In this document: in pieces, positions 24,411-54,502 of the stretch
How the letters are laid out: each line of letters starts with the position of its first letter
Numbering within the stretch: position 1 is the stretch's first letter
DNA from: Eubacteriales bacterium
Lineage (GTDB): Bacteria > Bacillota > Clostridia > Oscillospirales > CAG-272
DNA: 64,000 nucleotides
Direction: 5' to 3'
Assembly: GCA_051868045.1 (NCBI GenBank)
Contig: JBJDZN010000076.1
Location: forward strand, 1,935-65,934
Notes under the pieces: model-generated
Seen by the model: the letters and a program-made list of their open reading frames with translations, nothing else
What the model was told of the DNA's origin: nothing
The model's database searches: none
Made by a program: the position numbers and the translations under genes

Positions 24411-24564
24411 TGCCGATTCTTCTCATTATTTTTTGAACTCGTCCACTTTTTGCACAAATATGTCCGATTTTCATCTTGCAACTTTATGGAATTTGTATTA
24501 TAATAATAAAAAAACCGCCGATTAACGGGCTAACAAGAAAATCGGCAAGGAAAGGTTGAATCAA

Positions 24565-27057
24565 ATGAAAAGAATCCTGTCAATTCTCGTTGCACTTGCG
24601 ACGCTTGTCACCTTTGCGTCCTGCAACAGAACACCGCCTTCTCCCTCTTCATCGGTAGAGTCCGGGACAACCGGAACCACCGAACTGGTTCCGTCGGGAA
24701 ATGCACCGACGATCACGCCTATCGAGCAGACAGAGATCCAAAAGGAGTCCATTATGAATGTATCGGGAAATTCCTTTACTCAGACCTATGAAAATCCTCT
24801 GATTACTTTGACGACTCCGAATGTCTGGCCGAATTATGGCGTCGGAGATCCCTTTGTCATGCGCTGGAACGGAAGATACTATCTTTACTGCTCCACCAAG
24901 GACGGCAGTCTCGGTATCCAGTGCTGGACCTCGGATGATCTGATTACATGGAAGTATACGGGTCTGTGTGCAAGGGAAGTGGAAACGGTGACAGCCTACG
25001 CTCCCGAGGTTGTCTACTATAACGGTTATTTCTATATGTATACCTCTCCTGCCGGAAACGGTCACTATGTGCTGAGAAGCGAGTCGCCCACCGGTCCCTT
25101 CAAGGTAATAACCGGGAACTTCGGTCACTCCATAGACGGCAGTGTCTTCATCGACGACGACGGCAAATGGTATTTCTACTGCGCAAGCGGCAGCGGAATC
25201 ATGGTTTATCCCATGACGGCTCCCGATCAGATTTCGGATACGGGATCCAATACCGGTGCCAATATGAACGGCTGGACCGAAGGACCTATGGTTATCAAGG
25301 TCAACGGTGTTTATTATCTGACCTATACCGGTAACCACGTCTGGTGTAACGGTTATCGAATCAACTATGCGACCTCTACCCGTTCCCCTACCTATTTTAC
25401 GGCGGCAGATAACAACCCGATTCTGGTAAATACCCTCGACCTGCCTCAGGGAATCGGACATAGCTCTACCGTAATGGGTCCGAATATGGACAGCTATTAC
25501 ATCGTCTACCATTCCTCTCTCGGTGCGCCCAAGAGAGAAATGCGTATTGACAGACTGGTGTTCAACGGCTCCACAATGGAGGTGCTGGGTCCCACTACCA
25601 GTGATCAGCAGGCTCCCGAAATGCCCGATTTGTACTCTTATTTCACCGACAGTGCCGATCTTGACACCTGGTATTCCGACGGTGCAGCGATCTCCAACAG
25701 TGTGATGACCCTCAGCGACGGCGGATGGGTATTGGCAAAGTATTCGTACGGTGAAAATTATACCGCTGAGTGCAATGTGGCATCCATAAACGGCGGCAAG
25801 GCGGGTATGGTATTCAGCTTTACCAATGAGTACAACTACGGAACCGCCCTCTTTGATCCCGACGGACAGAAGCTGATCATCACCTTTATGGTCAACGGTG
25901 TTCCTACCGTCTATGAGCAGGCACTGAAAAACTCCTTCAAGGAGAATACCGATTTCACCAAGCTTCAGCTTCTGACGGTCCGTAAGGATGGCGGCAGCTT
26001 CACCTTCCTTGTCAACAACCGCACCCTTTGCACGCTTGCATCCGATCTCGGAACCGGTGCCTTCGGTGCCACTGCTGAGGGAGGAACCGCTACCATCGGC
26101 TTCATGGGCATTACCGGGGATGCCAACCAGTCCTCGATCAAGAGTTACTTCAAGCCGGTGTCCGGATCCCTTCAGGCAATCACCTGTGTTGAGGATGACG
26201 TGACGACTACCGCATATCAGAAGAAGTATCTGGTCAGCCTTGGAACGGACGGACATCTGAACTATCTGGTCAATGTGGCAGCAACTGCGGGCTACGATCT
26301 GGGAATCAGCTACCGAAGCTCGACAGAAACCAAACTGAAGTTCTATCAGAATCAAACCGAAATCGGGGAACTGACCCTTCCGTCCACCGACGGCAAGATG
26401 ACTACCGTTGTCTTCCGGAATCTTCCCATGACGGCGGGAATGTGTGCCATCACCTTTGTGGCAGCTTCCGGCTCCTGTGAGATCGAATCCTTTACCTTCC
26501 TTGAGTATGAAGCCGTCACTGCCATTGATCTGAATTACTCCAACCTTGCGGATAAGAATAAATATTCCGACGGAACATGGACGGTTGCAAACGGTGTGCT
26601 GAGTCTGGGCGGCGATACGCCTCTCGGAAAGCGTCTGTATGGCAGCGAGAGCTGGGGCGATTACACCGCCGAGGCGGATATTACCCTGAACAGCAGCACC
26701 ATCAACTTCGGTATGCTGGTTCGTGCCACCAATCCTTCGGTAGGCGGAGCAGGCAATGATGTTGTCGCCGGTACCGACTTTGTCCAGGGATACTTCATCG
26801 GACTGACCGGAAGTACCGTTGTGCTGGGTAAGCAGAACTACGGATGGGAGGTTCTGACCACGGCAGCCGTTACGACCAAGAACGGCGGAACCTATCATAT
26901 GAAGGTTGAGGCAATCGGCGCAACGCTGAGAGTATGGATTGACGGCAATCTGTTGATCGAGTATACGGATCCGGAGCCCTACCTCCAGGGACTGGTCGGC
27001 TTCAGAGGACATTACAGTGCCGCATCCGTTGATAACTTTACGGTAACTGCAAACTAA
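24565..27057 (+). CDS. GH43 glycoside hydrolase lipoprotein with two C-terminal LamG/DUF1080-like beta-sandwich modules
   Basis: Lipobox LVTFASC. GH43 five-bladed propeller motifs GDPFVMRWNGRYYLY, YAPEVVYYNGYFYMY, IDGSVFIDDDGKWYFY and TEGPMVIKVNGVYYLTY. The C-terminus WGDYTAEADI...GYFIGL...VDNFTV is typical of DUF1080/LamG. Confidence 0.85.
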   Translation: MKRILSILVALATLVTFASCNRTPPSPSSSVESGTTGTTELVPSGNAPTITPIEQTEIQKESIMNVSGNSFTQTYENPLITLTTPNVWPNYGVGDPFVMRWNGRYYLYCSTKDGSLGIQCWTSDDLITWKYTGLCAREVETVTAYAPEVVYYNGYFYMYTSPAGNGHYVLRSESPTGPFKVITGNFGHSIDGSVFIDDDGKWYFYCASGSGIMVYPMTAPDQISDTGSNTGANMNGWTEGPMVIKVNGVYYLTYTGNHVWCNGYRINYATSTRSPTYFTAADNNPILVNTLDLPQGIGHSSTVMGPNMDSYYIVYHSSLGAPKREMRIDRLVFNGSTMEVLGPTTSDQQAPEMPDLYSYFTDSADLDTWYSDGAAISNSVMTLSDGGWVLAKYSYGENYTAECNVASINGGKAGMVFSFTNEYNYGTALFDPDGQKLIITFMVNGVPTVYEQALKNSFKENTDFTKLQLLTVRKDGGSFTFLVNNRTLCTLASDLGTGAFGATAEGGTATIGFMGITGDANQSSIKSYFKPVSGSLQAITCVEDDVTTTAYQKKYLVSLGTDGHLNYLVNVAATAGYDLGISYRSSTETKLKFYQNQTEIGELTLPSTDGKMTTVVFRNLPMTAGMCAITFVAASGSCEIESFTFLEYEAVTAIDLNYSNLADKNKYSDGTWTVANGVLSLGGDTPLGKRLYGSESWGDYTAEADITLNSSTINFGMLVRATNPSVGGAGNDVVAGTDFVQGYFIGLTGSTVVLGKQNYGWEVLTTAAVTTKNGGTYHMKVEAIGATLRVWIDGNLLIEYTDPEPYLQGLVGFRGHYSAASVDNFTVTAN

Positions 27058-36302: not shown

Positions 36303-38885
36303 TTATTTTGCAATCAGCATGGGCTGATCGTTGACGACCGTCCACCCACACAGATCAGATGCCGACAGTCCTGCCTCGGATGCCACGCTGCTCAGACTTC
36401 CGTTCAGCGCATTGACCGCCGTCTGCGCACCGCTTCTGCTGCGGTCAACAGAGGTTTCCTCCCGATCCAGCCGGACATCGGCAGTGCCGTTGTCAATGTC
36501 GTTGGCATAGAAATTGGCGGAAAACGTGCCGTTACGGTCGGCATACCAGACATTGATGGGACCGGTCAGACTGGGTGACGAGAGGCTGCCTCCGAAGTAG
36601 CATCCCGAAATCACGGCAGATGCCTGATTGGATGCGGTGATGCCACCGGCATTTCCGCCGGTGGAAACTACCTCTACAAAGGAAATGCAGTTGACCAGAA
36701 CTCCGCCGGTACGGACACTTCGGCAGAGTCCGGCGGTAATGCCGCTGTTCTGAACCCTGCCCTTTGCCACCACATTGAAGACCTTTCCCGTCAGGTAGGG
36801 GAAGATACTGCTGTCGGTGCCGGTGATGTCAACCGTGATGCTGTGTCCGGCTCCGTTATAGGTTCCGGCAAAGGTGCAGCCGGAACCCATTCCCGTATAC
36901 CCCTTGACGCCGGTCATGTCGATGTCGGCGGTCTGGATAAAGGTTTTCCCACTGAAGGTCTGACCGGAAAGGACGCAGGCGGTGAAATTCAGAAAATCTG
37001 CGGCAGAGGTGACCTTGTAGGGATCCTGTGCGGTGCCGCTGCCTGTAAGGGTCAGTTCACCGGTGAAAGAAAAGGTCGGGGCATTCCAGTATTCATCCAG
37101 CCAGTCGATGCGGTTCGCCATCCAGTTTGCATAGTATTCGTAATGCTCCTTGTAGGAACTCAGGGCACGGATGACGGCGGTCTCACGGTTGATCTTCTGA
37201 CCGAAGATGGGCCAACGCTCGAAATTGCGGCAGTAGGAGTTGTAGCCCGCTTCTGCCTGGGCACGGATCATATCGGGGATCGTGTCGATCTGCCCCTTCA
37301 GCTCGTTCCAACGGGCGGTGATTTTTGCCTTGAACCATCCGTACTGTAATAAGGTTTTGAACCACGTGTTGGTGATGCCGGCACGGAGATCGTAATAGTT
37401 TTCGCAGCCCTCGTCGGCATTTCCGCCCGATTGGTCAAAGTCCCAGATGGGACCGAAGGTCAGCTTGCCGTCCTTGTCCTTGTACATGTAGAAGGAATCC
37501 CATCCGGCATCCAGATTCTTGAAAAGCTCCTCCACCAGATAGGTGTCAACCACCGAATCCATGTCGATGAGCTGCTCGATCGTCGCCTGATCGCCGCTTT
37601 GGACGGCATACCAGCATTGCCATAGATAATCCTCGATGTATGCACACTGACGGTTGAACAGATTGGCGTCGGTGGACAGATCGGAAATGATCTGATACTT
37701 GGTTCCGTTGACAACGAAGTAGGGGTCCTCCGCATAGCCTGACAACTCGATCAGGTAGCCTCTCTGATCGGGTTCTGCCTCAATATCGTCGTTGATGTTG
37801 ACCCGATACTCGTTGACCTGATTCTGCTCGCAGAGCAGGAAAACGCCCCGGTATTCGCCGTTCAGGTAGACTTCCACGCTCCTTGCGGCGGAATTCCATG
37901 CGATGCCCGACAGACTTCTGGCAAAATTCAGGGTGGTGTAGTTGCGCAGCAATGCCTGATCGCAGTGATCGGCAAGCAGGGTCCATACCTTGCACTTTCC
38001 GTTGCCCTCACCCAGAAGATTAACCTTTTGGGACAGCTTGATCTTGTAGGGGACCTTACCGTTCGGTGCCTGGGAACTCCAGGTGTAGTTACCCCGTCCC
38101 CGGATCTCCATGGCGAGGTTGTCGATCAGATACTGGTCCTCGGTGTTCAGAACCGAGATCGTTCCTTCAATGTAGACTTCCTTGGAGGTGATGGCGGCAC
38201 CGTTTTTAGTGGTCAGATAGAGGATAGGCAGTTCCAGGGCGTCGATTTCGAAATTGGCAACCAGATTCTGATTTTCGGTAAAACTCTCCCCACTGCGGGT
38301 GGCGGACTGTACGCCGTCGCTCCAGCCGGTGAACTTATAGCCCAGCTTGGGGGTGGCGGTTACCGAGGAGGTTGTGGACTGTCCGTATCGGATGGTCTGG
38401 TTTACCGTGCCCGACAGCGTTCCCCAAAGGGAATTGTTGACGCTGTATTTCACCGTGACTGCCGTTCCGACGGCAGGCTCCTGTACGGTTGGCTTCTCCG
38501 ATGTGGTGGTGACGGGAGTCGTGACGGTCACTTTCTGCGTGGTTGCCGCAGGTGAGGTTGCCGCAGATGAAGTTCCTTCGGGCGTGGTTCCTTCGGGCGC
38601 GGTGGTGATCGCAGGAGTTGTCGTAATGGACGGAACGGGAGTCGTCTGTGTGGAGGCTTTCGTCGGAACCGTTGACTCTGCCGTTTGACTTTCCCTTGTG
38701 GAGGGCTGGGACGTGGAATCCGTCGTGCTGCTTATTGTGGGATTCTGACTGTCCGTAAGGACGGTTGACTGTGCGGTCTGATTGTCCTCTGTGCCTGCCG
38801 TCTCTTTAGGTGAGCATCCGAAGAGGGTGAGCGACAGAAGGAGTCCCAGACCGAGAAAAAACAGGGGTTGGAATCGTTTCATCAT
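36303..38885 (-). CDS. CotH kinase family lipoprotein with InlB-B-type repeat and C-terminal Gly-rich adhesin-like module
   Basis: Lipobox LTLFGCS, a Thr/Ser/Pro-rich linker, and a B-repeat (...PKLGYKFTGWSDGV). The CotH core has YKIKL, KVWTLLADHCDQALLRN, YLNGEYRGVFLL and GPIWDFDQSGGN. The C-terminus has TFAGTYNGAGHSITV...STGGNAGGITASNQ. Confidence 0.85.
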   Translation of the reverse strand: MMKRFQPLFFLGLGLLLSLTLFGCSPKETAGTEDNQTAQSTVLTDSQNPTISSTTDSTSQPSTRESQTAESTVPTKASTQTTPVPSITTTPAITTAPEGTTPEGTSSAATSPAATTQKVTVTTPVTTTSEKPTVQEPAVGTAVTVKYSVNNSLWGTLSGTVNQTIRYGQSTTSSVTATPKLGYKFTGWSDGVQSATRSGESFTENQNLVANFEIDALELPILYLTTKNGAAITSKEVYIEGTISVLNTEDQYLIDNLAMEIRGRGNYTWSSQAPNGKVPYKIKLSQKVNLLGEGNGKCKVWTLLADHCDQALLRNYTTLNFARSLSGIAWNSAARSVEVYLNGEYRGVFLLCEQNQVNEYRVNINDDIEAEPDQRGYLIELSGYAEDPYFVVNGTKYQIISDLSTDANLFNRQCAYIEDYLWQCWYAVQSGDQATIEQLIDMDSVVDTYLVEELFKNLDAGWDSFYMYKDKDGKLTFGPIWDFDQSGGNADEGCENYYDLRAGITNTWFKTLLQYGWFKAKITARWNELKGQIDTIPDMIRAQAEAGYNSYCRNFERWPIFGQKINRETAVIRALSSYKEHYEYYANWMANRIDWLDEYWNAPTFSFTGELTLTGSGTAQDPYKVTSAADFLNFTACVLSGQTFSGKTFIQTADIDMTGVKGYTGMGSGCTFAGTYNGAGHSITVDITGTDSSIFPYLTGKVFNVVAKGRVQNSGITAGLCRSVRTGGVLVNCISFVEVVSTGGNAGGITASNQASAVISGCYFGGSLSSPSLTGPINVWYADRNGTFSANFYANDIDNGTADVRLDREETSVDRSRSGAQTAVNALNGSLSSVASEAGLSASDLCGWTVVNDQPMLIAK

Positions 38886-39031
38886 GTGACTGTGCCTTTC
38901 TGCGTAAAAAATGGAGTTAACCTATTGCTAACTCCATTTTAACATATTGATATGAACATTTTATGAATGATCGGCGGGATTTGGAAAAAACTGTTCTTTT
39001 TGCGCCGGTTTATTACCGAAGATAATGCCCT

Positions 39032-40360
39032 TTATTCCTGTTCGGGGGCGTATTTCTTCAGATAATTGCTGACGGTGGTGTTTTCCGTAAAACGAACGGT
39101 GCGAAGGGAGGTACTCCAGTACTTGAGGATGTTTTCATAGGAGTCGTTTGCAAGATCGGGAGCCTTGGCATTTGCACTGTAAAGTCCCCAGTTTCCGAGA
39201 TTTCCACGTCCGACCTTATAGGTCCACATGGTCCGTGAGATGCCTGCCTCGCAGTATGCCTCGTAGGCGTATTTCTGATTCTCGTCCCCGTTGTTGAACT
39301 CACCCACATAGATTGCAACGCCGTACTTTTCTTGTACGGCTTTCAGCTCTGCAACCCGGTAATCAATCATATCTTTGGAGGTATCGTACAGATGGAGCTG
39401 ATAAAGCATATTCTCCCAGCCGTAGTCGGCGGGATTTGGCAGACAGGCGGTGGACCAGATTCCCTCCACTGAGATGACGTGGACGGGATCCACCTGTCGG
39501 ATCGCCTTGTAAAGCAGGTCGTAGATTTCATTCGTCAGTCGGATTGCCTCGGCGGAGCCGGCGGAGGGTGCCTCATTTCCGTCGTTGTTCATGGGTTCGT
39601 TGAGCAGATCGTATGCGGCGACCGCACTGCTGTCCTTGTATCGCTCGGCGATGGCGGTCCAGAGCCTGACTGTGGCAGCTTTGGCATCCTCATCGGTGTA
39701 AAGCCCGCATCTGCCGATGGAGCCGCAGCAGTGATTGGTGGACTGACCGCCGGGCGCACCGTGAAGATCAAGAATGACGTAGATGCCGTACGTCTCGCAC
39801 CATGAAAGCAGTCGGTCAATGACCTGAAATCCCAATATTTCATCGGGATTTTCCGATAAAAAGCTGCCGTCCTCGTTCATGAAATTGCGGTACCAGAAGG
39901 GAAGGCGGACACAGTTGCAGCCCAGAGCGGCGATTTTTTTAATGTCATCCTCGCAGATGTAATTTTCGGCGTAGCTTTCAAAGAGTGCCGCCGCCTTTTC
40001 CGCCCCGAATCGGGATTCCAGAAGGGTCCATGAGTCCAGATTGCACTCCGAACCGTCCACCGGACACATCCAGCTTTCCTGAATCAGCCAGCCGCCCAGA
40101 TTGACCCCGTGGAGAACAACGGTTTTGCCGTTGGCATCGGTCAACTGACCGTTTTCAACCCGCAGCAGAGAAAGGGAACCCTCTCCGGACTTTGTCGGAA
40201 GGGGATTTTCTGCTGCACTGCTGCTGATACTGCTGCCGGTATCTGACGTTTCCTGCCGATTCTCGGTTTGATTTGCACCTGTGCCGCCCGAACAGCCTGC
40301 CAGGAGCAGGGGAAAAGTCAGAAGAAGGGATAAAATTTTGCCTGTTTTTTGGCGTTTCAT
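39032..40360 (-). CDS. GH5 glycoside hydrolase lipoprotein
   Basis: Lipobox LLLAGCSG, VVLHGVNLGGWLIQESW, catalytic acid/base region LLNEPMN, and nucleophile region YVGEFNN. Confidence 0.85.
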   Translation of the reverse strand: MKRQKTGKILSLLLTFPLLLAGCSGGTGANQTENRQETSDTGSSISSSAAENPLPTKSGEGSLSLLRVENGQLTDANGKTVVLHGVNLGGWLIQESWMCPVDGSECNLDSWTLLESRFGAEKAAALFESYAENYICEDDIKKIAALGCNCVRLPFWYRNFMNEDGSFLSENPDEILGFQVIDRLLSWCETYGIYVILDLHGAPGGQSTNHCCGSIGRCGLYTDEDAKAATVRLWTAIAERYKDSSAVAAYDLLNEPMNNDGNEAPSAGSAEAIRLTNEIYDLLYKAIRQVDPVHVISVEGIWSTACLPNPADYGWENMLYQLHLYDTSKDMIDYRVAELKAVQEKYGVAIYVGEFNNGDENQKYAYEAYCEAGISRTMWTYKVGRGNLGNWGLYSANAKAPDLANDSYENILKYWSTSLRTVRFTENTTVSNYLKKYAPEQE

Positions 40361-40565
40361 GATAAATCCTCCCGTTACGGTAAAATGGTAATTTTATATC
40401 TGTATTTTACCATGGATTCCGTTTTCTGTCAAGACCTGACTCTGCTTTTGGTCTAAGTTTACAAATTTCATGTTAAAATATTGTTAAATCTGACCAGCCC
40501 GAATGCTGGAAAAATTCATAAATTTATGGTAAAATATCCTTATCCTATCTATTGGAGATTGAGCC

Positions 40566-43046
40566 ATGCGAACGATTGAAAAAAATGTTTTGATTCTCAT
40601 GTTGGCGATCTGTCTGATTTTGCCGATCCTGTCCTCCTGCCGGACGGGGGAAAGTGCTTCTTCCGACGGTACCGGGCAAACGGATACCGATGTGTCCTTT
40701 ACCCGGGATCCGGACAATGTGACCCCTGAGGTGACGGTACCTCCCGTGTCGGAGCAGACCTCTCCCGACGGCAAGGCGAAGGTGATTTATGCGGTCAGCG
40801 GTCCCGGCGGATCACTGGACGGCAAGACCGAGCAGACCCCCGGCTCTTCCGGAACCACGGAGGTTAAGGCGGTTGCCGATGTGGGCTACTGCTTCAAAAG
40901 CTGGTCGGACGGTCTGACCGAAACCACCCGTAAGGGAGATACATCTTCGGACGGAGTGATGACGACCATCTATGCCGTCTTTGAACCCGAATATCTGGAG
41001 ATGCCCGTAATCAACATCACCACCGAAACCGGTGAGGACGTGGACCCCAGAATAGGCAATCAGGTTTACATCGGTGCCACCCTGTCTTTGACCAACTGTC
41101 CGGCGGATTATGCCCTGACCGACGTGACCATGCAGATGAGAGGACGAGGCAACTTCTCCTGGTATGACGTGCCCAAAAAGTCCTATAAACTCAAGCTCAC
41201 CGAGTCTCAGAATCTGCTGGGACTGGGCGAGGGCAAATCCAAAAGCTGGTGCCTGATTGCCAATCACTGCGATCAGTCCCTGCTGCGAAACTATCTGACC
41301 TATCAGCTTTGCAGAGGGCTGTCGGGACTGGACTGGGCACCCGACTGCACCAATGTGGAGGTCTATCTCAACGGCGAGTATCGGGGCGTCTATCTGCTGG
41401 TGGAGTCCATTAAGGTGGATGAACATCGTGTCGCCATCAGCGAGGATGTGGAGGCGGGAACCGACATCGGCTACCTGCTCCAGATGACCAATAACAGCGA
41501 TGAGACCTACCATTTCAATTCAAACGGCTTCAATTTTGACGTCAAGAGCGATCTGTCTGCCAGCTCCTCACTGGCTGATCAACAGTTGAGTTATATCCGT
41601 TCCTATGTGAATAACTGCTGGACGGCAGTCATGGGCGGTGATCAGGAGGAAATCGAAGCACTGATGGATCTTGATTCGGTAATCGACAGCTATCTGGTAG
41701 AGGAATTCAACAAGAATCTGGATGTCGGCTATGACAGCTTCTATCTGTATAAAGACAGCGGCGGAAAGCTGACCTTCGGTCCTGTCTGGGACTTCGATCT
41801 TGCCTTCGGAAACTCCAATGAACATGGCTGTGAGCTTGCCGAAGGGCTGTATACCGGTATCGACTACTGCAATCATTACCATTCCAATGAATGGTATACC
41901 TACCTCATGAGCTATGACTGGTTCCGTGAAAGGGTGGCAGAGCGTTGGAACAGCCAAGAGGTTCAGACGGTGTTCGGCGGAATTTCCGCACTTGCCACCG
42001 AAACGGCGCAGAAATACTACAACTCCTTCTGCCGCAATTTCAAGCAGTGGGAAATCTTTGGTCAGCAGATCAACCGTGAGACCTGGCGGATCACTTCGTT
42101 GATGAGCTATACCGAGCATTATCAGTATCTGGCACAATGGATTTCCGATCGCTTCGACTGGTTGAACGGATTTATCGGTTCCAATGACTACAATAAAGGC
42201 AATCTGTACGGCAGTGGCGAATTGCAACTCCCGGATCCCCCAAAAAATCCCGTGATCTCCATACCGGCGTTTTCGGGAGGCAGCGGAACGGTTGACAGCC
42301 CCTATCTGATCGCAAATGCGCAGGATTTCGTATCCTTTACGCAAATGCTGTATGCGACCGACTTTGACGGAACCTATTTCCTCCAGACTGCCGATTTGGA
42401 CCTTTCCTCCGTCAACGGCTACAAGGGCATCGGCTCCTCTGCCACGTTTGCAGGGGTTTATGACGGTGGCGGATACGCCATTACCGCACACATAGACTCA
42501 TCCGATGGCTGCATCTTTCCCTATGTCAGCGGACTTTTGATAAATGTCATTACCAAGGGTTCGGTGAAAAATACCAATCAGGCGGCAGGAATCTGCCGCT
42601 CTGTCCGTCAGGGAGGCGCACTGATCAACTGTGCTTCCTTTATGGATGTTACCTCCACGGGCGGTAACGCCGGCGGTCTGTCGCCCTCCACCCAGGGAGG
42701 AGACAGCAGTCCTGCCATCCTGAACTGCTTCTTTTTCGGAACGGTCAACGGCTTTGAGCAGTCCAGCCCCATCAACTGTTGGCTTGCGGGACGGTTCGGT
42801 CATTTTGCCTACATCTATTATAGTGAAACCCTCGATAACGGGTTTCTGACGGTCAGTGAGGATGACATCTGTCTGACGGCGGATCAGATGAAGAATGAGC
42901 TTGCCGACCTGCTCAACGGGAATATCGCCTCCCTGTCCGATGCACTGACACCCTACGGTCTGGGAACCGATGCTCTCTGTCGCTGGCAGAAGAACGGCGA
43001 CTGCCCCGTCATGCAGACCAAGGGAAATGTTGTCTTTGCCCGGTGA
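40566..43046 (+). CDS. CotH kinase family lipoprotein with InlB-B-type repeat and C-terminal Gly-rich adhesin-like module
   Basis: Lipobox PILSSC and a B-repeat (VGYCFKSWSDGL). The CotH core has YKLKL, KSWCLIANHCDQSLLRN, YLNGEYRGVYLL and GPVWDFDLAFGN. The C-terminus has TFAGVYDGGGYAITA...STGGNAGGLSPSTQ. Confidence 0.85.
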   Translation: MRTIEKNVLILMLAICLILPILSSCRTGESASSDGTGQTDTDVSFTRDPDNVTPEVTVPPVSEQTSPDGKAKVIYAVSGPGGSLDGKTEQTPGSSGTTEVKAVADVGYCFKSWSDGLTETTRKGDTSSDGVMTTIYAVFEPEYLEMPVINITTETGEDVDPRIGNQVYIGATLSLTNCPADYALTDVTMQMRGRGNFSWYDVPKKSYKLKLTESQNLLGLGEGKSKSWCLIANHCDQSLLRNYLTYQLCRGLSGLDWAPDCTNVEVYLNGEYRGVYLLVESIKVDEHRVAISEDVEAGTDIGYLLQMTNNSDETYHFNSNGFNFDVKSDLSASSSLADQQLSYIRSYVNNCWTAVMGGDQEEIEALMDLDSVIDSYLVEEFNKNLDVGYDSFYLYKDSGGKLTFGPVWDFDLAFGNSNEHGCELAEGLYTGIDYCNHYHSNEWYTYLMSYDWFRERVAERWNSQEVQTVFGGISALATETAQKYYNSFCRNFKQWEIFGQQINRETWRITSLMSYTEHYQYLAQWISDRFDWLNGFIGSNDYNKGNLYGSGELQLPDPPKNPVISIPAFSGGSGTVDSPYLIANAQDFVSFTQMLYATDFDGTYFLQTADLDLSSVNGYKGIGSSATFAGVYDGGGYAITAHIDSSDGCIFPYVSGLLINVITKGSVKNTNQAAGICRSVRQGGALINCASFMDVTSTGGNAGGLSPSTQGGDSSPAILNCFFFGTVNGFEQSSPINCWLAGRFGHFAYIYYSETLDNGFLTVSEDDICLTADQMKNELADLLNGNIASLSDALTPYGLGTDALCRWQKNGDCPVMQTKGNVVFAR

Positions 43047-43214: not shown

Positions 43215-43757
43215 TCAGATCTTGATTTCAAAGAGATTGCCGCATTTGGGGCATCGAACCTGATGCTCTCCCTTCTTTTTGGGAAGGCGTATGTTGGCAA
43301 GGCACATGGGACAGGTGCGGTAGACGTGATCCTTGTCGCGGGGTAGCTTGACCTTCTTCTTTTTCGGGGGATTTTTGGGAGTGTTGGTGTAGTCCTGATA
43401 GTCGTCCGGACGGTAGCTCTGACCGTATCCCTGATTGTATCCCTGATTGTAGCTGCCGTAGGAGCCGAAGCGGGAAGCTTTCTTCTTTCCGAAGGGCGTC
43501 TTGCTCATGACTTTGCCCCACCAGAGATTTTCTCTTGCTCTTGCGGGAATGTTTCGGGAAAACATCCGGAAGATCATATAGAAGAAGAGAACCCAGAGAA
43601 GAACCGACAGAATCATTCCCGCAGTATAGGAGAAGAAACCGACGATGATCTCAGCCAGAAACAGGATCAAATAGATCCACCACAGGCAGTAGCCGAAATA
43701 ATCCATCCCGTTTCTGCCTGCCATAAAGCGGGAAATTGCCATCATAATACGTCTCAT
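43215..43757 (-). CDS. membrane protein with C-terminal zinc ribbon
   Basis: Two TM helices, a Gly/Tyr/Gln-rich spacer, and a terminal CPMC...CPKC ribbon. The start is uncertain; the track ORF begins at 43793. Confidence 0.55.
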   Translation of the reverse strand: MRRIMMAISRFMAGRNGMDYFGYCLWWIYLILFLAEIIVGFFSYTAGMILSVLLWVLFFYMIFRMFSRNIPARARENLWWGKVMSKTPFGKKKASRFGSYGSYNQGYNQGYGQSYRPDDYQDYTNTPKNPPKKKKVKLPRDKDHVYRTCPMCLANIRLPKKKGEHQVRCPKCGNLFEIKI

Positions 43758-43814
43758 TGTCAAAACCTTGCCTTTATTGAAATATCTATCCAACGAATAC
43801 TGTCTTTGCTGACG

Positions 43815-44504
43815 TTACGGGTGGGGAAGTCCTGCCCGATACCTTGCCATGATGTCCTTGAAGATTTCGCCGTTTGTCGGGGGAGTCCAGGTGATGGCGT
43901 TTGCACCCGCTTCAATGGTGCGGCGGATGGAATCGTCGTCGGGTCCGCCGGTGGCGATGATGGACATGTCGGGATAGCGATCCCGGATCATTTTAACCAC
44001 CTCCGGGGTTTTGGTTGCGGCGGAAACGTTGAAAATAGAGGTTCCTGCCGCCACTCTTCCCTCAAAGTCGGTCTGCTCACTGACAACGGTGACAATCACC
44101 GGAATGTCGATCACCGAGACCGTCTCTGCGATGGTCGCATTGTCCACCGGCGCATTGAGAACCACGCCCAATGCTCCGCTTGCCTCGGCGGAAATCGCCA
44201 GATGCACCGATCTCTTGCCGCTGGTCAGTCCGCCGCCCACGCCTGCGAAAACGGGAATGTCGGATGCGGCGATCAACGACTGTGCGATGACCGGCTGCGG
44301 GGTAAAGGGATAGACCGCAATGACGGCGTCGGCATTGACATTCTTGATGATTGCCAGATCGGTGGAGAAAACCAGTGATTTGATCCGCTTTCCGAAGATT
44401 CGGATGCCGGTACAGGCTCGGATCGCATCGGGAACACGGAGGGAAAACTTCCGTAGGGTTCCGTCTATGGGCTCGGGATATTTTTTCGATGTTTCGTTTG
44501 CCAT
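43815..44504 (-). CDS. conserved hypothetical protein, predicted phosphate-binding (beta/alpha)8-barrel-like fold
   Basis: 229-aa ORF with alternating beta/alpha-like hydrophobic pattern and Gly-rich loops (FAGVGGGLTSG, IIATGGPDD). The function call is weak. Confidence 0.5.
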   Translation of the reverse strand: MANETSKKYPEPIDGTLRKFSLRVPDAIRACTGIRIFGKRIKSLVFSTDLAIIKNVNADAVIAVYPFTPQPVIAQSLIAASDIPVFAGVGGGLTSGKRSVHLAISAEASGALGVVLNAPVDNATIAETVSVIDIPVIVTVVSEQTDFEGRVAAGTSIFNVSAATKTPEVVKMIRDRYPDMSIIATGGPDDDSIRRTIEAGANAITWTPPTNGEIFKDIMARYRAGLPHP

Positions 44505-44666: not shown

Positions 44667-44947
44667 AGTCGTTCTCTCCCGAACGCCCTCCCATTGATCC
44701 GATCGTCAATGAAAATCCGAGGTTGCCTTTTGTCAAAATCCGTTTTTGTCAGATCCCTTGATTTTACGGTAATATTATGTTGCAGCATCCATAAAACAGT
44801 CGGAATGAATTCCGGAAGTTTTCGGATAAAGACAGGTTTACAAGAAAAAATTTCGATTGAAGCCCATCTATTTTTGAAAAAACCTTGCTTTTTTCGCAGT
44901 TGTGTGCTATACTTATCTTTGATATGAAGATTCAAAGGAGATTGTTT

Positions 44948-46627
44948 ATGTGCAGAACCTTTACTAATCCGGTAAATCCCGGAGGGGACGATCCCTTCGT
45001 CACCAAATATAACGGAATTTATTACTATTGCTATGCCGTTCCCGGAGGAGTCAACGTGACTTCTGCGACCTCGCCTCACCTGATTCACAAAAATCATGGA
45101 GAAGCCGTCTACCGTGCCCCGGAGGGAACGGAATGGTCTCACGAATACTGGGCACCCGAACTGCATCGGGTGGACGGTCGGTGGATCATCTATGTCGCCG
45201 CCGATAACGGGGACAATTTCCACCATCGGATGTATGCCTTGGGTGCCGTCACCGATGATCCCTGCGGTCCTTATGAGATGCTGGGAAAGGTCGCCGTGGC
45301 AGAGCCTTACGATAAATGGGCGATTGATGCCACCGTGCTGAATGTCGGCGGCAGACATTACTTCATCTGGTCGGGATGGGCAGGGGATGTGAATGTCCAG
45401 CAGAACCTCTACATTGCCCGCATGAAGGATGCCGTAACGCTGGACAGTCCCCGTTCCCTGATCTCCTGCCCCGAATTTGCCTGGGAAACCGGCTCCTGCG
45501 GAGTGGATGGTCTGCCTGCCATCAATGAGGGTCCCGCCGTTCTGCAAAGAGGCGGACGGACCTTCGTGATTTACAGTGCATCGGGCAGCTGGTCGGACGA
45601 CTACTGTCTGGGACTCCTGGAGCTTGTGGGCGACGATCCGCTGGATCCCAGAGCCTGGGTAAAATATCCCGAGCCGGTCTTCAAGGCGGCGGAAGGCTCC
45701 TACGGTCCCGGTCACTGCTCCTTTACCACCTCTCCCGATGGGGAAGAGGATTATATCGTCTATCATGCCAATGCAGAGCCCAACAAATCCTGGGGCGGCA
45801 GATCGCTGAGAATGCAGAAATTCACCTGGAAGGACGGTTTTCCGGTCTTCGGGGAACCCGCAGCACCCGGCGTGGAGCTGCCGGTACCTTCCGATGGGAA
45901 AAAGCGGATTGACACGGTTCTGTTTGATCTGGACGGAACCCTTCTGCCCATGGATCAGAACCTTTTCGTCAAGACGTATATGAAGGCGATCTGCAAGAAG
46001 ATGGCGGAGTACGGCAAGAAGCCCGAAGACGTGGTAAATGCCCTGTGGAAGGGAACCTACGCCATGGTGGGCAACGACGGCAGACAGTCCAATCACGATG
46101 TGTTCTGGAAGGTCTTCGCCGATCTTCTGGGGCAGGATGTGATGGATGCCTACGATCCCCTGCTGAAGTTTTACGAAAACGAGTTCGATGGGGTAAAATC
46201 GGTGGTGGACCCCTGTTTTGCCCGTGGGGAATACCCTGCAAGGGAACTGATCGACTGGCTGAAAGGAAAGGGCTACCGTCTGATTCTTGCCACCAATCCT
46301 GTCTTCCCTGAGACGGCTGTCCGGACACGGCTCGGCTGGATCGGGCTGACCCCGGAGGATTTTGCGCTGGTCACTACCTACGAGAACAGCCGATTCTGCA
46401 AGCCCAACGTCCGCTATTTTGAGGACATCCTCTTCAAAGCAGGCGGGGATCCCGATCACTGTCTGATGGTGGGCAACAGCGTCAATGAAGACCTGGCTGC
46501 CGAAAAATACGGTATGGACAGCTACCTGATCACCGATTTCATTGAAAATCCGGAGAATCTGGACTATTCTGCCTATAAAAAAGGCTCCTTTGCCGATTTT
46601 ATCCGTTATGCAAAGGAAAATCTGTAA
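44948..46627 (+). CDS. cytoplasmic GH43 glycoside hydrolase fused to a C-terminal HAD-superfamily hydrolase
   Basis: GH43 motifs: GGDDPFVTKYNGIYYYCY, YWAPELHRVDGRWIIYVA, INEGPAVLQRGGRTFVIYSAS. The HAD part follows with motif I DTVLFDLDGTLL, LATNP, and GNSVNEDL. AAGGAG RBS 7 nt before the ATG, and no signal peptide. Confidence 0.8.
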   Translation: MCRTFTNPVNPGGDDPFVTKYNGIYYYCYAVPGGVNVTSATSPHLIHKNHGEAVYRAPEGTEWSHEYWAPELHRVDGRWIIYVAADNGDNFHHRMYALGAVTDDPCGPYEMLGKVAVAEPYDKWAIDATVLNVGGRHYFIWSGWAGDVNVQQNLYIARMKDAVTLDSPRSLISCPEFAWETGSCGVDGLPAINEGPAVLQRGGRTFVIYSASGSWSDDYCLGLLELVGDDPLDPRAWVKYPEPVFKAAEGSYGPGHCSFTTSPDGEEDYIVYHANAEPNKSWGGRSLRMQKFTWKDGFPVFGEPAAPGVELPVPSDGKKRIDTVLFDLDGTLLPMDQNLFVKTYMKAICKKMAEYGKKPEDVVNALWKGTYAMVGNDGRQSNHDVFWKVFADLLGQDVMDAYDPLLKFYENEFDGVKSVVDPCFARGEYPARELIDWLKGKGYRLILATNPVFPETAVRTRLGWIGLTPEDFALVTTYENSRFCKPNVRYFEDILFKAGGDPDHCLMVGNSVNEDLAAEKYGMDSYLITDFIENPENLDYSAYKKGSFADFIRYAKENL

Positions 46628-49462: not shown

Positions 49463-49527
49463 CCGAAAGAGACTGACAAAAATTTGATTCATTTTAGAAA
49501 GAAAGAGTTACAGAAAGGATGATTAAA

Positions 49528-50844
49528 ATGAAGAATACCTTGAAAACACTGCTTATTTGCACTTTGGCAACAGCACTTTTGGTGTCCTGCAACCGTCAAA
49601 CGGGTGAAGAGGAAACCACCACTTCTGCAACGACTCAGAATGCCGACACAACCGCTCCTTCTTCCAATCCCACGACCCCTGACTCCACCGAAGTCAAGAC
49701 CCCGGAGGAAATCTATGCCGAAATTCTGGCATCCCAGAACAATCTGAAATATGAAATTACCAACGTGGCTGAGGGAATCACGGTCAGTATTCTCACCAGT
49801 ATTGATGGGAATAAGGCATATATGGTAACTTCCTATGATTTTCTTGGTATGAGCCAGACCGAAGAGACCTATTTTGTCGAAGAAGAGGGCGATGCAAACC
49901 GTTACTCTTACTATTACCAGGAAGACGGCAGTTGGTATAAGTACTCGTATGAAGAGAGTGAGGATACCGAAGGTAATACGAGTATGTTTACTTCCGATTT
50001 TGAAGATCTGGAGGACTTCTTCAAATCAGAGAACTTCGGAGAATTCGACAGCACAACCAACCGCTATCTCATCAATGAGGGTGTTGTGGTTGAAGAAACC
50101 GCTATCTTGAGCGGCTATCTTGAAATTGCCGATGACAGCTACACAATAGAGTTTGTGATCAGCGAAGAGGGCTACGAAATGACCACCAAAACGGTCTTCT
50201 CCGATTTCGGAAAGGTTTCGATCACGCTTCCCGAGGCAGAGGAGATAGACCCCGGGGAAGGATTTATTCCTGTTGAGTATCCCGAGACGGCTCCCTCCCC
50301 TGAGGAGATTTCCGCTCAGATCGAGACCGCCGAGAATGTCAGCATTGATCTTTATTCGGCTGTTGGTGAAGATAGTGTGTCGATGTATCTGGAACAGGAC
50401 AGAAACCTGATTTGGGTGATAACCGGCGTTTACTCCGGTAATGTTGGCTTTACGGATGAGTTTTATCTTGAAAAGGATGGAGATGCCGTCTATCTCTATC
50501 GTGTAGATGAAAACGGCAACTGGTGCAAGGAAGAGGTAACGGATGAGGATTTTGAGTATTACAGTGCGGACAACTCGGTGATTTCCGAACTGCTGAAGAC
50601 TGAAAACTTTGAGGAATATGATCCTGAAACGGGCGAATACCTTCTCAAAGACGGCAAGACGGTTCCCATTGAAGACTTTGGTACGGTTACCTTCGCATCC
50701 ATTGATGTTGGCTTTGACGGCAGCTACTTCATTTATCTGACTGTCGAAAGCGAAGACAGCGTCATGGAGGAAGAGTATTATTTCTCCTACTACGATTTCG
50801 GTTCCACCGATATTTACATTCCCTTTGAGAATGCGGTAGGATAA
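49528..50844 (+). CDS. acidic lipoprotein with an internally duplicated domain, function unknown
   Basis: Lipobox ALLVSCN. Two roughly 190-aa modules share the pattern Y(F/L)xE(E/K)xGDAxxxY...(E/D)(D/N)G(S/N)W(Y/C)K...ENF(G/E)E(F/Y)D. Confidence 0.65.
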   Translation: MKNTLKTLLICTLATALLVSCNRQTGEEETTTSATTQNADTTAPSSNPTTPDSTEVKTPEEIYAEILASQNNLKYEITNVAEGITVSILTSIDGNKAYMVTSYDFLGMSQTEETYFVEEEGDANRYSYYYQEDGSWYKYSYEESEDTEGNTSMFTSDFEDLEDFFKSENFGEFDSTTNRYLINEGVVVEETAILSGYLEIADDSYTIEFVISEEGYEMTTKTVFSDFGKVSITLPEAEEIDPGEGFIPVEYPETAPSPEEISAQIETAENVSIDLYSAVGEDSVSMYLEQDRNLIWVITGVYSGNVGFTDEFYLEKDGDAVYLYRVDENGNWCKEEVTDEDFEYYSADNSVISELLKTENFEEYDPETGEYLLKDGKTVPIEDFGTVTFASIDVGFDGSYFIYLTVESEDSVMEEEYYFSYYDFGSTDIYIPFENAVG

Positions 50845-52283: not shown

Positions 52284-53717
52284 TTATTTCTTTAAATCGG
52301 ATGACGTCAGCGTGATGGAAGCGGCAAACTGATAGTTGGGATCGCCCCGTTCGGCGGTGGTAGAGCGGAGCAGTTCCAGCGAGATTTCGGGAGTGTACTC
52401 CAGAACCGTTCCGCTGGTCAGAACGACTTTGACAGGGGAGAACAGATCAACCATGTCTTCGTTTAAATAGAGGGTGATCTCACCGCTCCGAAGTCTGGAG
52501 GTGTTCATGGTGATGGTATTGGTCGCCTTGTCGTAGCTGACGTCGATGGTACTGCCTGCGGCTGTGGAGGAAATCCAGTAGAAGGACTCGATTCCGCGCT
52601 GATCTGCCTTGCTGACGGTCGTGTTCCAGATCACCCGGGTCGGCAGCGGATCTCTCGTGTGGGCGGTCATCAGGGTGGCGGCATCGGTGTTGGCTTTGGT
52701 GGTGTTGCCGGTGGCAGATGCCAGTGTGCCGTTTGCCGTGTAGGCGGCGTACCAGGCTGCGAGATCCTTGACAACGGTCTGATCGGTGGTGGCATTGTCT
52801 CCTACTACGCCGTGCTCCTTGCCTACATGAACGAAGCATTGATGGAAATATCCGCCGCCGTATTTTTCAGCCAGTGCATCCAGTTTTTCAGAGTACTCCA
52901 CCGTGACGGTGTTTCGGCTGTAAGCACTGTCCAACTCGCCGACATTGAGATAGAAGGGAAGATTGTACAGATTGGTCAGATCAATGCCTTCGGGATGCCC
53001 TGCGGTCATGGTGGCAGATGCCAGCCGATCGGCAAGGACGGGGGCAATCTGATAGACTCCGTTTCCTCCCGCACTGTAGCCTACGATGTAAACCTTGTTT
53101 GGATCGGCATTCATATAGAGGATGCAGTCCTCGATGATCCGATCATAGAACGCCCAGCTGATGTCGGTGGAGAAAATCTGACCGCTGGACTCGTTGTCCG
53201 ATACCGAGCGGATGGAAATGTAGATGGCTGAGACACGGGTCTGGGTGTAGCGGTCTGCCATACCTGCCCACTGGCTTTCGTTGGTGGTTCCGGAGGGATC
53301 GTATCCGCCTCCGTGATACACCAGAAAAACGGGATAACCGTCGGCGGGTTGTTTGCCCACGACCTTGGTTTGCACCTTCATGGTGGTGCGTCCGATTTTG
53401 ATGTTGGTGATCTTGTTTTTCTGAATTTCGGTGGCACGTTCGGGGGATTCTTCGGCAACCTGCTCGGCGTACTCCTGCCAGATCAGCTCCCGCAGGGCAG
53501 TTACCGAGGCATTGTCGGTCAGGTTTGCCGCAAGGGCTTCGATCCGATCAGCCAAAGGAGCATCATCGGGAAGTGAGGAGTCGGCGGTTGCGGCAACGCT
53601 GTCCGTTCCGGTGTCGCTGCTTTGCGTCGGATCGCCCGATCCGCAGGAGGCGAAGGGGATCAGCAGACTTCCGATCAGAAGGGAACAGATGATAAACTTT
53701 AAAACGTGTTTTGTCAT
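52284..53717 (-). CDS. alpha/beta-hydrolase (esterase) lipoprotein
   Basis: Lipobox LIPFASCGS, HGGG-type oxyanion region FLVYHGGGYD, and nucleophile elbow GYSAGG. AGGAGAA RBS. The start overlaps the thyX stop (ATGA). Confidence 0.65.
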   Translation of the reverse strand: MTKHVLKFIICSLLIGSLLIPFASCGSGDPTQSSDTGTDSVAATADSSLPDDAPLADRIEALAANLTDNASVTALRELIWQEYAEQVAEESPERATEIQKNKITNIKIGRTTMKVQTKVVGKQPADGYPVFLVYHGGGYDPSGTTNESQWAGMADRYTQTRVSAIYISIRSVSDNESSGQIFSTDISWAFYDRIIEDCILYMNADPNKVYIVGYSAGGNGVYQIAPVLADRLASATMTAGHPEGIDLTNLYNLPFYLNVGELDSAYSRNTVTVEYSEKLDALAEKYGGGYFHQCFVHVGKEHGVVGDNATTDQTVVKDLAAWYAAYTANGTLASATGNTTKANTDAATLMTAHTRDPLPTRVIWNTTVSKADQRGIESFYWISSTAAGSTIDVSYDKATNTITMNTSRLRSGEITLYLNEDMVDLFSPVKVVLTSGTVLEYTPEISLELLRSTTAERGDPNYQFAASITLTSSDLKK

Positions 53718-54502
53718 GAGTTGTTCTCCTTTTTCTTGTTTTGAGTCAGGTTTCTGAATTTTTCCCGGACTTCCGCAGCCTTTCCGCAGGTCATGGAGCC
53801 TTCCGAGCAGCCGCCTCGGACACAGGAGGGTCCCGCACCGGAGAAGAGCAGGGGCGCAGCTTCCAGACAGAGGGTCAGCATCCGGGTCGCCAGTTCTCGG
53901 ATCTCCCACTGGGCACGGTTGCAACAGCGGAGCTTGAAGAAATTGTAGAGGGAGCGGGTGTTCATGGTCATGATAATGCGGGTGTCACAGGAATTGGGCA
54001 GAACGAAACGGGCATCCTCATTCGCCATCTTTCCTGCCGTTTTTGCGGCATCTGCGGGGGTACGCCCCTGTTCGATCAGGGTCTTCTCGTGCTTCTCCAT
54101 CAGGATTTGCCTCAGCTTGTCATAGGCTTCGGCATCCTTTTTCATCATATCGTCGTAGATTTCCTTTGCCTCGGGAATGGCGGCAATTTCGGGGGGCGTA
54201 ATGTATTCAAATCCCGATTTTTCCACATATCGCTGGCTTTGCACCGAGAAGGAAGCGATTCTGTGACGGGTCAGCTGGGCGAGCAGGGTTCGGGAAACGC
54301 CCTCAATACCGAAGGTAAAGGAGGCGTGTTCAATGGGGGATTCGTGTCCCAGATCGCCCAGCAGCTTGAGGAAGCTCTCCACCTTGTCGGGGGTCAACTT
54401 CTCCATCAGAGAGTCGATGTTGCATTTGGCATAGCAGAGCTTGGCGGCGGCGGCAACCAGTTTGTCGGCGTCGGGGGTATAGGTGATCAGTTCCACTTTC
54501 AT
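53714..54502 (-). CDS. thyX: FAD-dependent thymidylate synthase ThyX
   Basis: ThyX motif RHRIASFSVQSQRY. Start MKVELITYTP with a GAAAGGAAG RBS. Confidence 0.9.
   Translation of the reverse strand: MKVELITYTPDADKLVAAAAKLCYAKCNIDSLMEKLTPDKVESFLKLLGDLGHESPIEHASFTFGIEGVSRTLLAQLTRHRIASFSVQSQRYVEKSGFEYITPPEIAAIPEAKEIYDDMMKKDAEAYDKLRQILMEKHEKTLIEQGRTPADAAKTAGKMANEDARFVLPNSCDTRIIMTMNTRSLYNFFKLRCCNRAQWEIRELATRMLTLCLEAAPLLFSGAGPSCVRGGCSEGSMTCGKAAEVREKFRNLTQNKKKENNS

Follow-up and report, generated by a model that had tools for sequence, protein, structure and literature searches.

Predicted exported CotH-family lipoproteins carrying a GLUG-type beta-helix module in a Eubacteriales bacterium

Three proteins encoded in a 64,000-nucleotide stretch of DNA (the window) from the metagenome-assembled genome of an uncultured Eubacteriales bacterium of a gut-type Clostridia lineage probably belong to the CotH family, whose members are atypical kinases of the Fam20-like kind, and are probably exported and tethered to the membrane. 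Judging from sequence, we put the probability of this reading and its overall mechanism at about 0.6. That they are exported CotH-family enzymes with a GLUG-type beta-helix is predicted with high confidence, and that they are active ecto-kinases acting on a docked surface substrate is roughly an even chance. The proteins, here called A, B and C, are all deposited at NCBI under the name "CotH kinase family protein", and the window lies within a 135-kb contig. An exported class of CotH proteins was already known, its function being unknown, and the three proteins were already annotated. New here is the architectural variant, and two findings go beyond a preliminary description made from the letters of the window alone: the CotH paralogs are conserved as a cluster, and their C-terminal beta-helix belongs to a subfamily that occurs both on CotH proteins and on secreted phosphatases.

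Results

Architecture of the three proteins

The open reading frames (ORFs) of A, B and C have exactly the coordinates that the preliminary description gave them. A and B have a layout in common, which consists of a signal peptide with a lipobox, a Ser/Thr/Pro-rich linker, one InlB B-repeat-like domain, a CotH core and a C-terminal module of about 260 residues. This layout had been recognised by eye and was confirmed by Pfam, the lipoboxes, the composition of the linkers and full-length alignment. C consists of a lipobox and a CotH core only. The features are listed below (HMM, hidden Markov model; AF2, AlphaFold2).

36303..38885, minus strand: protein A, 860 residues, predicted exported CotH-family lipoprotein of the long A type (MGM9637740.1; Pfam CotH and Flg_new_2)
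38814..38885, minus strand: A residues 1-24, predicted lipoprotein signal peptide, lipobox L-F-G-C24 (read from the sequence)
38436..38813, minus strand: A residues 25-150, low-complexity linker rich in Ser, Thr and Pro (composition, 52% Ser/Thr/Pro)
38241..38414, minus strand: A residues 158-215, InlB B-repeat-like domain, Flg_new_2 (PF18998, 36.2 bits)
37083..38240, minus strand: A residues 216-601, CotH kinase-like core with Lys277, Asp459 and Asp482 (Pfam residues 261-596; profile match to 5JD9)
36306..37082, minus strand: A residues 602-860, predicted capped right-handed beta-helix with CRSVR at 721-725 (module HMM, 3e-101; homology to the modelled B module)
40566..43046, plus strand: protein B, 826 residues, predicted exported CotH-family lipoprotein of the long B type (MGM9637742.1; Pfam CotH)
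40566..40640, plus strand: B residues 1-25, predicted lipoprotein signal peptide, lipobox L-S-S-C25 (read from the sequence)
40641..40793, plus strand: B residues 26-76, linker rich in Ser, Thr, Pro and Asp (composition, 37% Ser/Thr/Pro)
40794..40985, plus strand: B residues 77-140, borderline InlB B-repeat-like domain (PF18998, 23.4 bits; aligns with the clear copy in A)
40986..42245, plus strand: B residues 141-560, CotH kinase-like core with Lys204, Asp386 and Asp409 (AF2 model, Foldseek, profile against 5JD9)
42246..43043, plus strand: B residues 561-826, predicted capped right-handed beta-helix with CRSVR at 677-681 (AF2 model, Foldseek, profile search)
16379..17785, plus strand: protein C, 468 residues, predicted short lipoprotein with lipobox L-G-G-C20 and a CotH core with Lys119, Asp299 and Asp322 (MGM9637722.1; Pfam CotH)

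A and B are paralogs, 41.5% identical over 802 residues by BLASTP. C is 55.8% identical to B over 407 residues of B's core, rather than the two-thirds estimated by eye, and 43.4% identical to A. Hundreds of full-length homologs of the CotH proteins were found, which rules out chance or an ORF artefact. An NCBIfam scan of A, B, C and the glycoside hydrolase family 5 (GH5) lipoprotein encoded between A and B gave no useful match.

The motifs from which the preliminary description had derived the layout are present at YK(I/L)KL (A280/B207), K.W.L.A.HCDQ.LLRN (A299/B226), YLNGEYRGV.LL (A340/B267) and GP.WDFD (A478/B405/C318) in the core, and at TFAG.Y.G.G..IT (A671/B627) and STGGNAGG (A741/B697) in the C-terminal module. 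The core motifs also occur in C, except that YK(I/L)KL is YRIKL there. The B-repeat motif needed correction: GY.F..WSDG is found at A182 and B107, but B reads KSWSDG and lacks the Gly before WSDG that had been ascribed to both proteins. The Pfam scan for this domain was likewise clear in A alone. Flg_new_2 exceeds its 23.6-bit gathering cut-off in A (E 5.9e-9) and falls marginally below it in B (E 6e-5).

The CotH core and its active site

Pfam CotH (PF08757) was found in all three proteins, as had been expected, with 111.9 bits (6e-32) for A, 146 bits (2.5e-42) for B and 152 bits (3.6e-44) for C against a cut-off of 23.8, and each match spans the full 322-position profile. The core of B (residues 141-560) was modelled with AF2 on 14 homologs, giving a predicted local distance difference test score (pLDDT) of 81.9 and a predicted template modelling score (pTM) of 0.86. 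The model has the anticipated CotH fold. Its best PDB matches by Foldseek are 5JDA (E 9.2e-14) and 5JD9 (E 3e-13), both CotH of Bacillus cereus and the former with AMP and Mg, with template modelling (TM) scores of 0.58 on the query and 0.67 on the target. PI3K and HipA kinase-like folds rank after CotH. A and C, at 43-56% identity, probably share the fold modelled for B's core. B alone gave a marginal match to CotH among PDB sequences (E 0.02), and a profile built from the core alignment matched 5JD9 with an E of 5e-9.

In Bacillus subtilis CotH, D228 is catalytic and D251 binds metal, and mutants of either residue are inactive (PMC7821199). In the profile alignment to 5JD9, B. cereus D224 coincides with the Asp of KNLD, which is invariant, and D247 with the first of the two Asp in WDFD, likewise invariant. 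Since D224 and D247 are 23 residues apart, like D228 and D251, they were equated with D459 and D482 of A, D386 and D409 of B, and D299 and D322 of C; the numbering was carried from B. subtilis to B. cereus by this spacing, and the roles of the residues are those of PMC7821199. Both Asp are invariant in 14 aligned sequences, made up of the three proteins and 11 homologs that share 41-57% identity with B's core. The Lys of KKSY and a D..L.RN motif are common to B. cereus CotH and invariant in the same 14 sequences. The preliminary description had pointed to WDFDQSGGN in A where B and C have WDFDLAFGN, and asked whether the catalytic Asp are kept in all three paralogs. The difference is real, and the Asp are kept in A as well. 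A's variant residues follow the metal-binding Asp and are found again in other homologs of the A type; they are no sign of inactivation. Residue retention suggests that the catalytic machinery of A, B and C is intact, from which we infer kinase activity outside the cell.

Export signals

Lipoprotein signal peptides predict that A, B and C are exported and lipidated. The signal peptides and lipoboxes were called by inspection of the sequence, as LFG-C24 in A, LSS-C25 in B, LGG-C20 in C and LAG-C in the GH5 lipoprotein. The pattern sought was a positively charged N-region, a hydrophobic core and [LVI][ASTVI][GAS]C in the first 35 or so residues. The lipoboxes of B, C and the GH5 protein fit it, and that of A departs from it with a non-canonical Phe at position -2. 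A lipobox-like N terminus is present in 76 of 120 homologs.

The C-terminal capped beta-helix

Gly accounts for 12-13% of the C-terminal modules, against 7-9% of the cores. The preliminary description compared the modules to GLUG/beta-helix adhesin repeats and proposed a search for GLUG. Pfam, GLUG included, gave no match to the isolated modules of A and B, even at E<=10; the comparison was borne out by fold and by profile homology. A model and a profile were made from an alignment of 29 modules (A1). The AF2 model of the B module (pLDDT 93.6, pTM 0.92) shows a right-handed parallel beta-helix with a short helical cap after it. The sole significant PDB match by Foldseek is BACOVA_03286 (3N6Z, "putative IgA1 protease"; E 3.6e-7, TM 0.58), and the next matches are the N-terminal beta-helices of IgA1 proteases 7UVL, 7UVK and 6XJB (E 0.1-0.2). 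A pectate-lyase- or tailspike-like enzyme was ruled out, with Foldseek E values above 0.4 and TM scores of 0.13-0.29.

A search of 1.84 billion representative proteins with the module profile gave 25,535 matches with E<=1e-3, of which 1,213 had E<=1e-30. Giant proteins, in which the helix core is matched as many as 24 times, are numerous among them. Word-indexed homolog searches with the module gave 4 matches with a single sequence and 20 with a profile, mostly short fragments. Pfam GLUG was found in 4 of 7 repeat proteins scanned (P0168, P0223, P0234 and P0258; 43-110 bits), which the module profile matches with E values of 1e-59 to 1e-83. The profile also matches P0285 and P0286, both with precomputed PF07581. 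Since the profile matches GLUG-bearing proteins, the comparison with GLUG is right at the superfamily level. In A and B the motif has diverged, GGLVG having become AGICR with Arg in the place of the GLUG glycine. By modelled fold and profile homology only, the module is placed in the GLUG/IgA1-protease beta-helix superfamily.

Enzymes that carry the same module

The 164 top representative matches to the module profile were fetched. The whole module, including the cap, is held by 39 of them, and 33 of these were scanned with Pfam. Secreted phosphatases and phosphoesterases account for 13 of the 33, and the partners are distributed as follows.

Alkaline phosphatase: 7 of 33 (P0127, P0140, P0145, P0152, P0206, P0232, P0240)
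Y_phosphatase3: 3 of 33 (P0128, P0133, P0181)
Metallophos (calcineurin-like): 3 of 33 (P0129, P0172, P0217)
CotH: 8 of 33 (6 by Pfam; 2 short fragments without a Pfam match, assigned from their sequence)
GT87 membrane glycosyltransferase: 3 of 33
Other full-module proteins: Big_3 only, 1 of 33; no recognised domain, 8 of 33

The phosphatase fusions have signal peptides and two to three tandem modules, and two have terminal dockerins. By Pfam, a phosphatase domain is present in none of 7 control proteins that have only partial or multi-copy repeat matches. Phosphatase-linked and CotH-linked modules have a mean identity of 34% (up to 44%), the same as phosphatase-linked modules among themselves, compared with 27% for GT87-linked or other full modules. 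B's module shares 43% identity with the module of alkaline phosphatase P0240 and 41% with A's. The Arg that replaces the GLUG glycine (R678 in B, R722 in A) is found in 100% of CotH-linked, 81% of phosphatase-linked and 18% of other full modules, and Gly is dominant at this position in generic repeats. This pattern is suggestive of a module subfamily that recognises something relevant to phosphoryl transfer.

Four proteins (P0260, P0261, P0266 and P0178) are GT87-family membrane glycosyltransferases fused to the capped beta-helix module, which hints that the module may recognise an envelope glycopolymer. Pfam has no model for the capped module that the phosphatases carry.

Genomic context and synteny

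The order of genes around A and B is GH130, a PepC-like peptidase, a GFO-type oxidoreductase, A, GH5, B, two small genes, a GH43-HAD fusion and threonine dehydratase. The preliminary description had placed the CotH genes among GH5, GH43, GH130 and GH76 genes. GH5 is the only glycoside hydrolase gene that adjoins them. GH130 is 4 kb away, the GH43-HAD fusion 2 kb, another GH43 gene 9 kb and GH76 18 kb beyond B, with housekeeping genes between. The GH5 gene is described as follows.

39032..40360, minus strand: predicted GH5 lipoprotein, 442 residues, lipobox LAG-C (Pfam Cellulase PF00150, 1.7e-27)

The closest solved relatives of the GH5 protein are the putative beta-xylosidase GE32 (9KU5, 8.6e-35) and exo-beta-1,3-glucanases. 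Its gene lies upstream of A on the same strand across a gap of 146 bp with no terminator-like site, and is preceded by a strong sigma-70-like match; both statements concern consensus matches only. GH5 and A may be co-transcribed.

C is separated from A by 19 kb and from B by 23 kb, and lies among ComM-like, PFK, MFS and phospholipase C genes. Its start overlaps by 4 bp the stop of a beta-class carbonic anhydrase gene (15822..16382, plus strand), which suggests translational coupling of two functionally unrelated genes. Within the window, no transporter or regulator is coupled to the CotH cluster, and no sporulation genes were recognised beside A, B or C or in the CotH loci of the relatives examined.

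Protein B was used to search the GTDB genomes, and only one relative, 83% identical, was found. This relative (L003) keeps the order A-GH5-B with a YccF gene inserted. The link to GH5 is absent in relatives that are about 50% identical (L001, L002, L007, L009 and L010). The synteny that the preliminary description had suggested surveying is thus kept only in the 83%-identical relative, and a conserved CotH-GH5 functional operon is ruled out. The CotH genes of the more distant relatives are arranged as follows.

L001, 9455-17900: a B-type gene, two short CotH genes and an A-type gene side by side
L002, 655-10017: a B-type gene, one short gene and two A-type genes
L007, 10001-14028: a B-type gene and a short gene with a 4-bp overlap
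L009, 10001-18646, and L010, 2074-10719: four genes on the same strand, namely B-type, short, 865-residue and short

The 865-residue gene of L009 and L010 has no Pfam match on record and is probably of the A type. Since these relatives keep two to four adjacent CotH paralogs without GH5, in the general order long B-type, short, long A-type, short, the conserved unit is the CotH paralog cluster, and this cluster is split in the genome of the window.

Other glycoside hydrolases occur near the clusters. A GH78 rhamnosidase gene is next to the CotH cluster in L001 and L007; in L009 it is upstream and a few genes stand between it and the cluster. On a 4.5-kb metagenome scaffold, L008 (1296-4475) has a 1059-residue ORF (P0143) that reads as the C-terminal part of a GH106 alpha-L-rhamnosidase, CotH and beta-helix. 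It could be a true fusion or an artefact of assembly or frameshift. With GH78 near the clusters and this ORF, there may be a link to glycans. The preliminary description had concluded from the expansion among glycoside hydrolase genes that the proteins act at the glycan or host interface. That inference is weak and makes too much of the glycoside hydrolase neighbours. Its GH5 part is lost at about 50% identity, and the GH78 and GH106 genes keep it alive.

Several neighbouring genes are recorded here in their own right. Directly downstream of B are two genes (43215..43793 and 43815..44504, both minus strand). The product of one is a small membrane protein whose C-terminal tail, CxxC...CxxC, is zinc-ribbon-like, and that of the other is a 229-residue protein with no Pfam match. 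The 229-residue gene and a small gene (179-180 residues) adjoin B in the same position in L003 and L011. The gene at 44885..46627 (plus strand), 2 kb from B, joins a GH43 domain to a C-terminal HAD-family (phosphatase-like) domain, an unusual pairing that is conserved in the 83%-identical relative (L003, 14675-16354). An 833-residue protein (24556..27057, plus strand) combines a GH43-like domain with a C-terminal domain like 3-keto-disaccharide hydrolase/DUF6250. Long ORFs without a Pfam match at E<=1e-3 occur at 49519..50844 (plus), 52284..53924 (minus), 18402..19361 (plus) and 22493..23698 (minus), and are candidate genes or shadow ORFs.

Discussion

The proposed mechanism is that of a tethered enzyme. 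The lipobox Cys would be lipidated and so fasten the protein to the outside of the cytoplasmic membrane, from which the disordered Ser/Thr/Pro stalk would extend and carry the folded domains into the wall zone. The InlB B-repeat and the capped beta-helix of A and B would dock the enzyme on a surface-associated or extracellular ligand. The CotH core would then move phosphate from a nucleotide donor to the docked substrate, for which the candidates are Ser/Thr-rich proteins of the surface and glycopolymers of the wall or the diet. The short paralog C would be a bare catalytic unit. In relatives the genes for long and short paralogs adjoin one another, so the two kinds of protein probably work together.

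The reference point for the family is Bacillus CotH (5JD9, 5JDA), a Ser/Thr kinase of the spore coat that belongs to the same Pfam family and fold as A, B and C. The catalytic Asp, the metal-binding Asp, the KKSY Lys and the D..L.RN motif are conserved between them, although identity to the A/B/C family is only about 16% and the Asn five residues after the catalytic Asp is Ser in the latter. Bacillus CotH, which has one domain and some 360 residues, is located in the cytoplasm of the mother cell and assembles into the coat, whereas A, B and C have predicted lipoprotein signal peptides and stalks, and A and B also the B-repeat and the beta-helix. Spore-coat localisation defines the Bacillus orthologs rather than the Pfam CotH family. 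It is not a predicted feature of A, B and C, which have export signals and no sporulation genes recognised in their neighbourhood.

Exported CotH proteins have been described before. In cellulosomes they include Clostridium thermocellum CseP (Cthe_0044) and Cthe_0239 and the dockerin-CotH proteins of anaerobic fungi, whose function is unknown (PMC12484212, PMC6083626). Compared with A and B by architecture only, they are likewise extracellular, occur in anaerobic Firmicutes of plant fibre and gut, and combine CotH with targeting modules. They differ in being attached by dockerin to scaffoldin without a lipid anchor, and their partners are LTD, Fn3 and dockerin domains. Streptococcus intermedius SIR_1594 is a secreted CotH-FN3 protein encoded in the pel operon; it is reported to retain the catalytic residues and has been hypothesised to be a repurposed kinase (bioRxiv 10.1101/2024.04.20.589940). 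It resembles A, B and C as a secreted CotH homolog of a Gram-positive bacterium. It differs in its FN3 accessory domain and its exopolysaccharide operon, and neither a lipoprotein nature nor a paralog cluster was reported for it. An SH3-CotH protein has been described in Zetaproteobacteria. The statement in the preliminary description that the function of exported CotH proteins is not established is therefore correct, but it is not new (PMC12484212, PMC6083626 and the S. intermedius pel work). A literature search found no characterised ortholog among exported CotH proteins, and no description of the lipobox-B-repeat-CotH-GLUG architecture or of this beta-helix with phosphatases.

The beta-helix module also has known counterparts. 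BACOVA_03286 (3N6Z) and the N-domains of streptococcal and Gemella IgA1 proteases (6XJB, 7UVK, 7UVL) are right-handed parallel beta-helices like the modelled A/B module. With GLUG beta-helices the module shares a start of the form G.GT..PY...F.G.fDGnG..I and repeated GG...N..G.I.NC turns. It differs from GLUG domains in that Pfam GLUG is silent, Arg replaces glycine (AGICRSVR) and a helical cap ends in LC.W. Modules of the A/B type are found on CotH kinase-family proteins and phosphatases, whereas the known GLUG beta-helix is found on an M26 protease.

It is possible that the CotH domains phosphorylate a carbohydrate, such as a wall glycopolymer or a dietary or host glycan, together with the neighbouring glycoside hydrolases, and that the beta-helix binds glycan. 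Fam20B and POMK are eukaryotic secretory-pathway kinases with carbohydrate targets. CotH is distantly related to Fam20C and the other Fam20 kinases (PMC7821199). The likeness of Fam20C, Fam20B and POMK to A, B and C is one of functional analogy, as atypical kinase folds that act beyond the cytosol on secreted proteins or glycans; no sequence match is detectable, and the eukaryotic enzymes have lumenal ATP in the Golgi, whereas the bacterial proteins would face the exterior. The genes around the CotH loci are in part consistent with a carbohydrate substrate. The GH5 lipoprotein gene sits between A and B, possibly in one transcript with A, and the arrangement is kept at 83% identity; at about 50% identity the adjacency is gone. 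GH130 and the GFO-type oxidoreductase recur upstream, and GH78 lies near the clusters of L001, L007 and L009. C, however, lies among housekeeping genes, and the cluster lacks the coupled transporter or regulator of a polysaccharide-utilisation locus. The ORF that reads GH106-CotH-beta-helix would, if a true fusion, be a direct connection, but it stands on the 4.5-kb scaffold and may be an artefact. The fusion of the capped module to GT87 membrane glycosyltransferases points the same way, and parallel beta-helices are commonly polysaccharide-binding; weak pectate-lyase and tailspike matches were obtained here, but they are not significant (E>0.4, TM<0.3). The sole characterised CotH enzymes phosphorylate protein Ser/Thr, and a carbohydrate substrate is considered unlikely.

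The proteins could also be non-enzymatic surface adhesins or scaffolds in which the CotH fold is only a binding surface, as proposed for the CotH3 invasins of Mucorales. Stalk, B-repeat and GLUG beta-helix form an adhesin-like architecture, a structural role has been discussed for cellulosomal CotH proteins (PMC12484212), and a donor nucleotide outside the cell is problematic. Against this, the Lys and both the catalytic and the metal-binding Asp are invariant in 14 sequences that are 41-57% identical and include the three paralogs. Conservation of this kind across divergent sequences is what selection for catalysis would be expected to leave. Moreover, any adhesin-like module is missing from the short paralog C, and a purely structural role is quite improbable. 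Alternatively, the proteins could act in sporulation: made in the mother cell or forespore and exported to the intermembrane or cortex space or the spore surface, they would phosphorylate components of the spore envelope and so fill, as lipoproteins, the role that CotH has in Bacillus. The founding CotH members are spore-coat kinases, and the host is a Eubacteriales genome from a group with many spore formers. However, CotH of Bacillus lacks a signal peptide, sporulation genes were recognised neither beside A, B and C nor beside their relatives, and secreted CotH homologs occur in non-sporulating streptococci and in cellulosomes. The only promoter-like matches are of the sigma-70-type consensus, which is weak evidence. 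A role in sporulation is highly improbable.

Several points weigh against the reading of A, B and C as ecto-kinases acting on a docked substrate. All catalytic models need an external nucleotide donor, whose source outside a Gram-positive-type cell is unexplained; this is their main weakness. The Asn five residues after the catalytic Asp of B. cereus CotH (N229) aligns with Ser (DSFY), and one metal ligand may differ. The lipoboxes were called by eye, and that of A has Phe at position -2. The association of the module with phosphatases was drawn from 33 scanned proteins of a ranked list, with only 7 proteins as controls. Descent of a generic wall-binding module from one ancestor may account for it without any shared phospho-substrate, and 8 full-module proteins have no recognisable enzyme domain. 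Overall, A, B and C are still best read as exported CotH-family enzymes: the CotH fold was recovered for B's core and the catalytic residues are present.

A more far-reaching proposal is that targeting is the dedicated task of the GLUG beta-helix with its cap and Arg. It would bring opposing extracellular phosphoryl-transfer enzymes to one surface or wall substrate, with CotH kinases as one party and alkaline phosphatases, PTP-like phosphatases and metallophosphoesterases as the other. Clostridia of gut and rumen would then have reversible extracellular phosphorylation with clustered CotH paralogs as its writer complex, a bacterial counterpart of the Fam20 secretory kinase system. We consider this distinctly unlikely at present.

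Finally, to our knowledge no other bacterial family of Fam20-like atypical kinases has proven activity, and that of CotH is known only inside sporulating Bacillus. Many CotH homologs bear export signals. The locus described here adds a widely conserved architecture of predicted lipid anchor, stalk, B-repeat, apparently intact CotH core and beta-helix, and evidence for the inheritance of long and short paralogs in one cluster. It also adds a handle, the beta-helix subfamily that the CotH proteins have in common with secreted phosphatases and GT87 wall glycosyltransferases. Were the module no more than a generic wall anchor, the architecture would be an ordinary variant of domain shuffling. Should it instead bind an envelope polymer or a surface protein that is, or can be, phosphorylated, identifying the ligand would reveal what a whole class of bacterial ecto-kinases and ecto-phosphatases acts on.

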